DNA of 64,000 bases from an uncultured Ruminococcus sp. Its GTDB lineage: Bacteria > Bacillota > Clostridia > Oscillospirales > CAG-272. Under the pieces are notes generated by a model, which saw only the letters and a list, made by a program, of their open reading frames with translations, made no database searches and was not told where the DNA came from. This document shows positions 40,095-40,410 of the stretch, one piece after another (within the stretch, counting starts at the first letter, position 1; each line of letters starts with the position of its first letter). Made by a program: the position numbers and the translations under genes. The DNA lies in NCBI GenBank assembly GCA_964621165.1, contig CAZULC010000001.1, positions 204,281 to 268,280 of the forward strand, given 5' to 3'.

Positions 40095-40410
40095 CGGGGA
40101 AGCCCCCGCGGGCAAACTCGGCCCTATTTAAGCCGTAATTTTAAGCCAACCCACGATAAATGTGGTGCAGCTCCCGCAGTGTTCCTATCGTTATTCTTTA
40201 CGGGGAAGCCCCCGCGGGCAAACTCGGCCCTATTTAAGCCGTAATTTTAAGCCAACCCACGAGAATGTGGTATAGCTCCCGCAGTGCTCCTATCGTTATT
40301 CTTTACGGGGAAGCCCCCGCGGGCAAACTCGGCCTTATTTAAGCTGAGATTTTAAGCCAACCCACGATAAATGTGGTATAGCTCCCGCAGTGTTCCTATC
40401 GTTATTTTTT
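40095..40410 (-). repeat. Family C: three tandem ~106-bp units filling the ylxQ-infB spacer
   Basis: Units start at 40095, 40201 and 40306 on the plus strand: CGGGGAAGCCCCCGCGGGCAAACTCGGCCCTATTTAAGCC...CCAACCCACGA...AGCTCCCGCAGTG...CTATCGTTATTCTTTA. They are near-identical. Confidence 0.9.

Follow-up and report, generated by a model that had tools for sequence, protein, structure and literature searches.

The genes ylxQ and infB, the latter coding for translation initiation factor IF-2, are neighbors in the rimP-nusA-ylxR-ylxQ-infB operon, and the question raised by the locus described here is why, in one uncultured Ruminococcus sp., the space between them is filled by three near-identical head-to-tail units, and what these units might do there. 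The locus lies in a stretch of 64,000 nucleotides of contig CAZULC010000001.1 (assembly GCA_964621165.1, positions 204,281–268,280 of the forward strand), which we refer to as the window; coordinates are those of the window unless another sequence is named. A preliminary description had put the units forward as candidate cis-acting RNA elements for processing, attenuation or IF-2 translational control, or as a recently amplified mobile unit. Comparison with related genomes shows that the array is evidently real, recently triplicated, conserved by orthology and constrained in sequence, and that it belongs to a new, lineage-specific repeat family, here called family C, with a copy number at this site that is variable. 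The explanation that we prefer, with a probability of roughly 0.55, is that it is a constrained and recently triplicated repeat acting as a co-transcribed intercistronic RNA module, of the kind represented by the REP/BIME, BOX, ERIC and Correia repeats.

The ylxQ–infB tandem array

The operon is ordered rimP, nusA, ylxR, ylxQ, infB. Tandem Repeats Finder reports a single array at 40095–40410 (period 106, 3.0 copies, 93% matches, no indels scored, score 562), and manual division gives three head-to-tail units of 105–106 bp that fill the ylxQ–infB spacer and are 92–95% identical to each other (95.3% and 93.3% to the last unit for the other two, in pairwise comparison), with 5–8 substitutions and one indel separating them. 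The three tandem units of about 106 bp in the preliminary description, and the unit sequence quoted there, are therefore correct. The upstream open reading frame codes for an L7Ae-family protein (PF01248) and is therefore ylxQ, and with YlxR, NusA and RimP as neighbors the assignment of both flanking genes holds. On the minus strand of 39900–40800 the 3′ end of ylxQ reads ..ATC AAA AAA TAA, and is followed by the three units and then by CTGCACGGAGGTTAATA and the infB ATG, with the 17 nt gap and the GGAGG ribosome-binding site inside it as first described. One point needs correction: the stop codon is not the boundary of the unit nearest ylxQ, which also takes in the final two codons together with the TAA, and an ..AATAA.. 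tail recurs in every unit (Table 1).

At 324 nt, the spacer is long for this gene pair. Among 27 more distant relatives the median ylxQ–infB spacer is ~2 nt and the maximum 174 nt, and in close relatives without the element it is 33–95 nt, in keeping with the expectation that the two genes are normally close together. A conserved promoter-like site stands at the head of the operon, upstream of rimP (42970–42998), and transcription from it would cross the family-C copies of the leader, then rimP-nusA-ylxR-ylxQ, and after these the array and infB. On its transcribed (minus) strand the array has neither a promoter-like nor a terminator-like site and, lying inside the operon, should therefore be transcribed together with ylxQ and infB; the preliminary description had argued likewise.

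An independent short-read contig (L001; Logan, SRR10165008) is 100% identical to positions 40305–42745 and stops one base into unit 2, and this base is a T, as in the array, rather than the C found after the last unit. The other end of the contig also lies inside a family-C copy, and a break of the short-read graph at such copies is what a real repeat would be expected to give. An assembly artefact, against which the preliminary description had cautioned, is unlikely because the contig continues with T and because the units differ at 5–8 positions; both favor a real array.

The array site in related genomes

A YlxQ search of the NCBI metagenome assemblies gave six lineages in which YlxQ is 69–77% identical to that of the window. 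In four of the six the element is present, with site and orientation unchanged, and in two it is missing. NusA could be compared in two of the six lineages, and that of the window is 86% identical both to that of L085 and L083, which carry the element, and to that of L082, which does not. There is one copy in L084 (where the first hairpin contains a 20-nt insert, itself a hairpin), in L093 and in L094; L085 and L090 have one copy and the remnant of a second 3′ hairpin; and L083 and L091 have at least two tandem copies with a period of 112, both contigs ending inside copy 2. In L082 and L092 there is no element, and ylxQ continues for 8–23 more codons into the downstream sequence; the YlxQ proteins of relatives without the element are 3–18 aa longer. 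Every spacer copy is in operon orientation and opens with ATAA just after ..AAAGAAGA, and the element therefore supplies the ylxQ stop codon.

The nusA DNA of L085 and L083, which count as one lineage, is 99% identical, yet these have one and at least two copies, respectively, so that copy number differs between very close relatives; each of the two states is backed by two independent assemblies. Comparison of copy number in related genomes, one of the checks named in the preliminary description, thus gives 0, 1, at least 2, and 3 copies among relatives. Elsewhere in the operon of L082, a degenerate partial family-C copy that has lost its 5′ block is present in the rimP–nusA spacer (L082 537–620, minus strand), antisense to the operon. 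The nearest species representatives, uncultured Clostridia from animal guts with ~60% NusA identity, are without a family-C copy, and L095–L098, contigs of a relative further removed whose spacers are compact and free of repeats, serve as contrast only. A PduL protein search with contig look-up, made to widen the clade, was of little use, PduL being too conserved to pick the clade out.

Orthology and sequence constraint

Spacer copies of different species are 74–82% identical to each other, and spacer and non-spacer copies, those of the same genome included, are 57–74% identical. The linkers between cores are alignable across species though they are outside the family consensus. This similarity of the spacer copies and their linkers therefore points to descent from one ancestral copy at this site, and we take the comparisons to show that the ylxQ–infB spacer evidently already contained one copy in the ancestor that this species shares with its closest known relatives. 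The window units are closer to each other (92–95%) than to any orthologue, and the triplication is therefore recent and lineage-specific. The same data show the element to be, by all appearances, an old resident that was recently triplicated here, and not a fresh insertion. Of the recently amplified mobile unit that had been proposed, the recent amplification stands and a recent insertion at this site does not, the element being conserved there across species.

The element is also more conserved than its surroundings would lead one to expect of neutral sequence. Fourfold-degenerate sites of the flanking genes are 33–66% identical between the window and its relatives, and 53 of the 107 columns of the element show no variation among six lineages. 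These 53 columns are clustered, with 26 bases in runs of at least eight, a number reached by none of 10,000 column permutations; the runs correspond to the blocks AAGAATAA, TGCGGGAGC and TCGTGGGTT, the last two of 9 nt each, and the G5/C4 terminal hairpin is also kept. These patterns indicate that the element evolves more slowly than synonymous sites and is presumably under purifying selection acting on its primary sequence.

Family C, a dispersed intergenic repeat

A hidden Markov model of the three units (nhmmer) finds diverged relatives elsewhere in the window, and nhmmer and a covariance model together add four full-length window sites to the array, and three in the relatives. Homology among the family members begins ~18–20 nt into the 106-nt unit, at ..TGCGGGAGCT, and the unit therefore consists of a core of 86–89 nt and a linker of ~18 nt, the linker being the local ylxQ tail, ..AAGAATAACGATAGGAAC. 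That the array is an amplified unit of a dispersed repeat family is supported by copies at 18506–18593, 42814–42901 and 56195–56283, and by weaker sites. All family-C copies in the window are intergenic. All full-length copies outside the spacer are antisense to local transcription and all spacer copies are sense, and this difference in orientation distinguishes the spacer copy from the other members of the family.

Family members are modular. The 3′ hairpin is GGGGGCTTCCCC, GTCGGTGCTACCGAC, or both, depending on the copy; the leader copy at 42814–42901 has the blocks ACTGCGGGAGCTAT and TCGTGGGTTGGCT but a different 3′ hairpin (GTCGG-TGCTA-CCGAC), and the copy at 18506–18611, which adjoins a copy of a larger repeat family at 18102–18446, has both hairpin types. 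The core at 28410 likewise adjoins a copy of the larger family. Tandem periods of 103, 105–106 and 112 are seen. With several copies shorter than 200 bp, presence or absence at orthologous sites, and modularity, family C has the attributes of small interspersed intergenic repeats.

The family has a narrow distribution, and was seen only in one Logan contig and in NCBI metagenome assemblies GCA_0371931xx–0371943xx. Searches with two DNA patterns gave no matches in species-representative genomes, and none and then four chance matches in coding DNA in the JGI metagenomes; viral contigs gave no match either, nor did blastn against plasmids and phages. Covariance model R1, run over 90 loci (941 kb) and four further loci (50 kb), found no member outside the narrow clade, and family C is absent from 80 loci at 42–60% NusA identity and from L095–L098. 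A literature search under the sample and assembly accessions gave no result.

Origin of the array

The repeated segment takes in the ylxQ tail both in the window and in L083 and L091 (period 112). A third, independent tandem pair is present in L085 (7330–7560) upstream of the L085 promoter, with the arrangement X-core-X-core-X, where X is TATGCAACATGCTGTA and the period is 103; here too the pair consists of the core and 16–19 nt of local flank. The same site in the window is empty, with a single X at 43067–43052, and conversely the two leader copies of the window are absent from the L085 leader. Such filled and empty sites show that family C has inserted at different places in different species. 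The duplicated units carry local flank, and the arrays are therefore products of segmental tandem duplication, not of separate insertions; they would grow and shrink by unequal recombination, with whole linker-plus-core units gained or lost.

The longest match between inverted ends is 5 bp (GCGGG/CCCGC), whether whole units or cores are compared. The L085 cores are flanked by direct 16–19 nt copies of X, which could be read as a target-site duplication and are equally explained by tandem duplication, and no direct repeat flanks the window array. No transposase, RAYT included, is found among 40 window proteins scanned with Pfam (64 kb of genome). No consistent GTAG/CGTC tag of the REP type accompanies the 16-nt terminal palindrome, and L085 alone has a GTAG directly next to it; TTTGCC comes before the palindrome on one strand and TTTAC or TGCAG on the other, and an internal CGTC lies away from the compact palindrome.

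Known RNA classes and candidate structures

A single unit folds into a three-way junction and a terminal hairpin at −35 kcal/mol (z = −1.8), compared with −26 kcal/mol (z = 0) for the antisense strand, and the hairpins named in the preliminary description (CCAC/GTGG, GGGG-GCTT-CCCC and GCGGG/CCCGC) are all present in the minimum-free-energy fold. Structure statistics were taken over 14 copies, and in most of these the sense-strand fold gains stability over the antisense from G-U wobble pairs. Hints in favor of a structure are few: a single C-G to U-A exchange lengthens the terminal hairpin, some copies swap that hairpin for another, and L084 has a hairpin inserted within its first hairpin. In a manually drawn three-way junction 82% of cells are paired, versus 80% after shuffling. 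What is conserved among the copies is mainly sequence, not pairing.

The element is neither a terminator nor a riboswitch or ribozyme of a known kind. There is no intrinsic terminator at 40078–40410 on the minus strand, the terminal hairpin being followed by GTAAAGAA or GCTGCACG, and with no attenuator-like terminator in the array the suggestion of attenuation is not upheld. The sole match to Rfam at gathering score in the whole window is a tRNA-Ser; at E≤10 nothing is matched over 39950–40550, and at E≤5 across the whole window there is no match on any repeat. ARAGORN finds no tRNA or tmRNA in the array.

Several candidate structures were considered and rejected. A kink-turn (K-turn) for YlxQ is not a feature of the element, since a scan script finds the arrangement (a canonical stem, a 3-nt bulge, tandem sheared G-A/A-G pairs and a non-canonical stem) missing in seven of nine complete spacer-site cores, and in no case where its position is conserved; GA dinucleotides number only two in the units, in a geometry incompatible with a K-turn. 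A hammerhead-like CUGAUGA..GAA in the copies at 42814 and 18506 is not in the array units and is without Rfam support. In the window, CUUCC could mask the infB Shine-Dalgarno sequence through five base pairs, but this pairing is not conserved, and the Shine-Dalgarno context of the relatives differs. Long-range pairing between linker and terminal loop is weak, cognate helices exceeding non-cognate ones only in L085 and L083a.

The leader (42716–42906, plus strand) has two antisense family-C copies, as against three sense copies in the spacer (40095–40410, minus strand), and one transcript would therefore carry perfectly complementary blocks of 13–14 nt, ~2.4 kb apart. The predicted leader-to-spacer duplex has −188 kcal/mol, versus −139 ± 8 for shuffled leaders, and the blocks are possible as a long-range duplex or RNase III site. 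As a conserved feature this pairing was rejected, because it is specific to this species and not kept in L085.

A candidate intercistronic RNA module

In the explanation that we prefer, the element would be transcribed within the rimP-nusA-ylxR-ylxQ-infB mRNA as an intercistronic module made up of stable GC stem-loops and sequence-specific protein-binding blocks. Through effects on the processing or decay of the polycistronic mRNA, it would shift the ratio of ylxQ to infB expression, and the infB ribosome-binding site, just outside the last unit, would remain accessible. The triplication may be a recent change in dosage of the module, or a neutral expansion. There are precedents for such effects: BOX, BIME, ERIC and Correia repeats, when co-transcribed, attenuate, stabilise or trigger cleavage of mRNAs (PMC3049150), and REPs downstream of genes are examples of co-transcribed repeats that change expression (PMC3733652).

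Several observations weigh against this explanation. Both transcription of the element and any effect on the mRNA are inferred. The mean folding z-score over the 14 copies is −1.2 for sense and −0.95 for antisense; RNAalifold on the 14 sequences finds no compensatory pair, its energy being −5.9 kcal/mol and its covariation term 0.02; and the three double-change pairs in the manual structure are a number reached by 141 of 500 shuffles. With covariation among family-C copies not significant and z-scores modest, the structured-RNA reading of the preliminary description is not supported, and we note that power to detect covariation is low, given helix strands that are nearly invariant and a family not found outside the clade. 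The element is lost or absent in L082 and L092, and is therefore dispensable there. The antisense orientation of the non-spacer copies is a misfit with one common RNA-level role for the whole family. Homogenisation by paralogues is an alternative cause of the conservation, the paralogues sampled being those of the 64 kb window and 14 kb of L085.

The main rival, and a serious one, is that the element is a selfish or neutral repeat, non-autonomous and either mobile or recombining, that sits in a permissive spacer, with tandem copies made by slippage or unequal crossover and with an apparent conservation owed either to homogenisation by family members or to a preferred site that took insertions more than once. 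We consider this rather unlikely. It would account well for dispersed copies in both orientations relative to genes, filled and empty sites that differ between species, a window saturated with other repeats (23% non-coding), a copy number that varies with loss of the element in two lineages, the lack of covariation, and short-read contigs that break at copies. It accounts poorly for spacer copies that group by locus across species and not by genome, for non-family linkers that are nonetheless alignable, and for invariant positions that are strongly clustered and far commoner than at fourfold sites; nor is there a terminal inverted repeat longer than 5 bp or a transposase in the window, as a mobile element might have.

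A more specific role in translation is harder to sustain. It is doubtful that the core is a new class of RNA module, specific in sequence and structure and recruited by the host to set IF-2 synthesis, whether through binding of YlxQ, YlxR or NusA or through alternative pairing of G-blocks and C-blocks, in which case copy number would be an evolvable dial and the antisense leader copies could add long-range pairing here. Quite improbable, in turn, is a regulatory RNA of a new class recruited from the family and controlling IF-2 synthesis as a YlxQ/NusA/IF-2 operator, a riboswitch or a ribozyme, with one to three cooperative copies. Site and orientation are conserved directly upstream of infB, and the invariant blocks are interrupted by variable segments; the insertion in the first hairpin of L084 is itself a hairpin, CCCGC or CCCC are possible alternative partners for the GCGGG, GUGGG and GGGGG blocks, base pairing of the linker GGG(N)AA with the loop of the terminal hairpin is possible in some species, and YlxQ belongs to the K-turn-binding L7Ae family, whose archaeal member L7Ae regulates its own mRNA (PMC5539422). 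These points are offset by the absence of conserved K-turn geometry in the cores, of any match to a known Rfam class and of significant covariation, by cognate linker–loop helices that are barely longer than non-cognate ones, by family members elsewhere that are antisense to transcription, and by the absence of the element in L082 and L092.

That the invariant blocks act in DNA, binding a protein of nucleoid organisation, recombination or replication for which the array multiplies the sites, is very improbable. Conservation of primary sequence more than of pairing, copies in both orientations, and the position of the window next to dnaA, dnaN and gyrBA are consistent with it, but orientation at the spacer site is strictly conserved, G-U wobbles favor the sense-strand fold over the antisense in most copies, and no candidate protein or known site motif is recognised. 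Wrong expansion of a single unit to three during assembly, an error to which tandem repeats longer than short reads are prone and at which the break of L001 might hint, is the least probable of all, given units that differ at 5–8 positions and one indel, a unit 3 that runs into the T of another unit in L001 and not into the C following the last unit, and tandem copies at the same site in two independent assemblies of a relative (L083 and L091).

If the RNA module explanation is true, the array would be a clear case of a small repeat under constraint inside a highly conserved bacterial housekeeping operon, and the natural alleles with 0, 1, 2 and 3 copies before the IF-2 start would be a ready series for the study of repeat tuning within operons; if the array is neutral, it is an ordinary repeat expansion. 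The copy number of the array could serve as a strain marker.

Comparison with known repeats and RNA elements

The BOX elements of Streptococcus pneumoniae and S. suis (boxA-boxB(n)-boxC; PMC3049150) resemble family C in being small, modular interspersed repeats with a module in variable tandem number, which are intergenic and in operons, co-transcribed, predicted to form stem-loops, and able to alter gene ends. Family C differs in having no complementary terminal modules like boxA and boxC, its terminal inverted matches being at most 5 bp; its repeated unit is the core plus local flank and not an internal module, and its copy at the spacer locus is conserved across species. BOX was set apart by description, and the family-C unit matched no Rfam family.

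The REP/BIME elements of Proteobacteria (PMC3733652, PMC2817692) are likewise abundant GC-rich intercistronic hairpins, often just downstream of stop codons, that cluster into mosaics with other motifs and have been proposed to act in mRNA stabilisation or attenuation. REPs, however, are GTAG/CGTC-tagged palindromes of 20–40 bp, often with RAYT transposases, whereas the family-C unit is 86–106 nt, with no consistent tag by the hairpin and no RAYT gene in the window. Repeats of the MITE (miniature inverted-repeat transposable element) type, such as Correia, ERIC and RUP (PMC3049150), are similar in being ~100–150 nt, dispersed, and present or absent at orthologous sites, and in transcribed form they can introduce sites for RNase III or RNase E or affect how stable the flanking mRNA is. 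The defining marks of MITEs are terminal inverted repeats together with short target-site duplications; in family C there is no terminal inverted repeat longer than 5 bp and no clear target-site duplication.

Bacterial YlxQ is reportedly a K-turn binder, and is mentioned in K-turn reviews. Archaeal L7Ae binds a K-turn in its own mRNA (PMC5539422), and the array resembles that system in that an RNA element adjoins an L7Ae-family gene within the mRNA of that gene. The cores differ in showing no conserved C-stem, 3-nt bulge and tandem G-A geometry, and the element is 3′ of ylxQ, not in a 5′ untranslated region.

Table 1. Positions of the array, the flanking genes and the repeat copies in the window.
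Feature	Coordinates	Strand	Remarks
Unit 3	40306–40410	(-)	105 nt; first in mRNA; core 40393–40305; covariance model 96.0 bits; identical in contig L001
Unit 3 linker, AAAAAATAACGATAGGAAC		(-)	Holds final ylxQ codons and TAA stop (40404–40402)
Unit 2	40201–40305	(-)	105 nt; core 40287–40200; 1-nt deletion in first hairpin loop; 94.3 bits
Unit 1	40095–40200	(-)	106 nt; last in mRNA; core 40182–40094; 96.4 bits
Array-to-infB gap, CTGCACGGAGGTTAATA	40078–40094	(-)	17 nt before infB ATG; Shine-Dalgarno GGAGG at 40088–40084
ylxQ (L7Ae/L30e family, 109 aa)	40402–40731	(-)	PF01248; stop codon inside the linker of the element
infB (IF-2, 1030 aa)	36985–40077	(-)	Directly downstream of array; Pfam families checked on L085 orthologue
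Operon promoter-like site	42970–42998	(-)	TTGCAA-17-TATAAT, extended -10 TG; 88% identical to L085
Family-C copy	42814–42901	(+)	Operon leader, antisense to mRNA; 65–70% identical to units; 66.9 bits
Family-C copy, variant or partial	42746–42814	(+)	TGCGGCAGCT..CGTGGGATT subtype; adjoins 42814–42901; related to 60662–60749
Family-C copy	18506–18611	(+)	jag–mnmE spacer, antisense to both genes; model match 18506–18593, 59.6 bits
Family-C copy	56195–56283	(-)	28 nt downstream of SLH-domain gene, antisense to it; 69.3 bits
Family-C copy, weaker or partial	28410–28486		nhmmer or covariance model
Family-C copy, weaker or partial	60662–60749		nhmmer or covariance model
Larger-family copies, examples	5284–5647, 12072–12401, 16214–16573, 18102–18446, 25599–25929, 28879–29081, 31426–31765		5284–5647 is self-inverted
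Larger-family copies, further examples	32814–33162, 44908–45227, 49033–49337, 60420–60683, 61478–61827, 63315–63620		

Other features of the window

The window genes are housekeeping genes of the origin region (mreC, parAB, mnmE, jag, yidC, rnpA, dnaA, dnaN, gyrB, gyrA and others), and almost every long intergenic region between them contains a copy of the larger, mosaic repeat family, with 100–360 bp per copy. Most spacers of 350–800 bp hold such copies, and ~23% of the window is non-coding. The larger family has no Rfam match and no transposase nearby. In the distant relative (L095/L097) the spacers are 14–144 nt and none of the larger-family repeats is present. Intergenic DNA unusually crowded with unclassified repeats marks this uncultured lineage of gut Clostridia, and may account for the short contigs in short-read assemblies.

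On the minus strand at 42911–42998, a leader hairpin that ends in a U-rich tail, GAGAGTG..CACTCTCTATTTC, comes after the operon promoter. With 88% identity to L085 7527–7705, the whole segment is better conserved than the neighboring coding DNA, and may therefore be a leader attenuator of the nusA operon.

The infB gene has internal repeats of its own on the minus strand: a 24-nt tandem repeat in 12 copies at 39500–39797, encoding an AEAKAK.. low-complexity tract, and 9-nt repeats at 39156–39265, where N, R, D and S residues are abundant. The repeat tract is also in the L085 orthologue, with a different repeat pattern. Several housekeeping proteins are long, including Jag/KhpB (715 aa, 18700–20847), GyrB (784 aa, 29047–31401), DnaA (562 aa, 23887–25575) and GidB (337 aa, 5683–6696), the usual versions of which are much shorter, which suggests that there are lineage-specific insertions or extensions in coding regions too.

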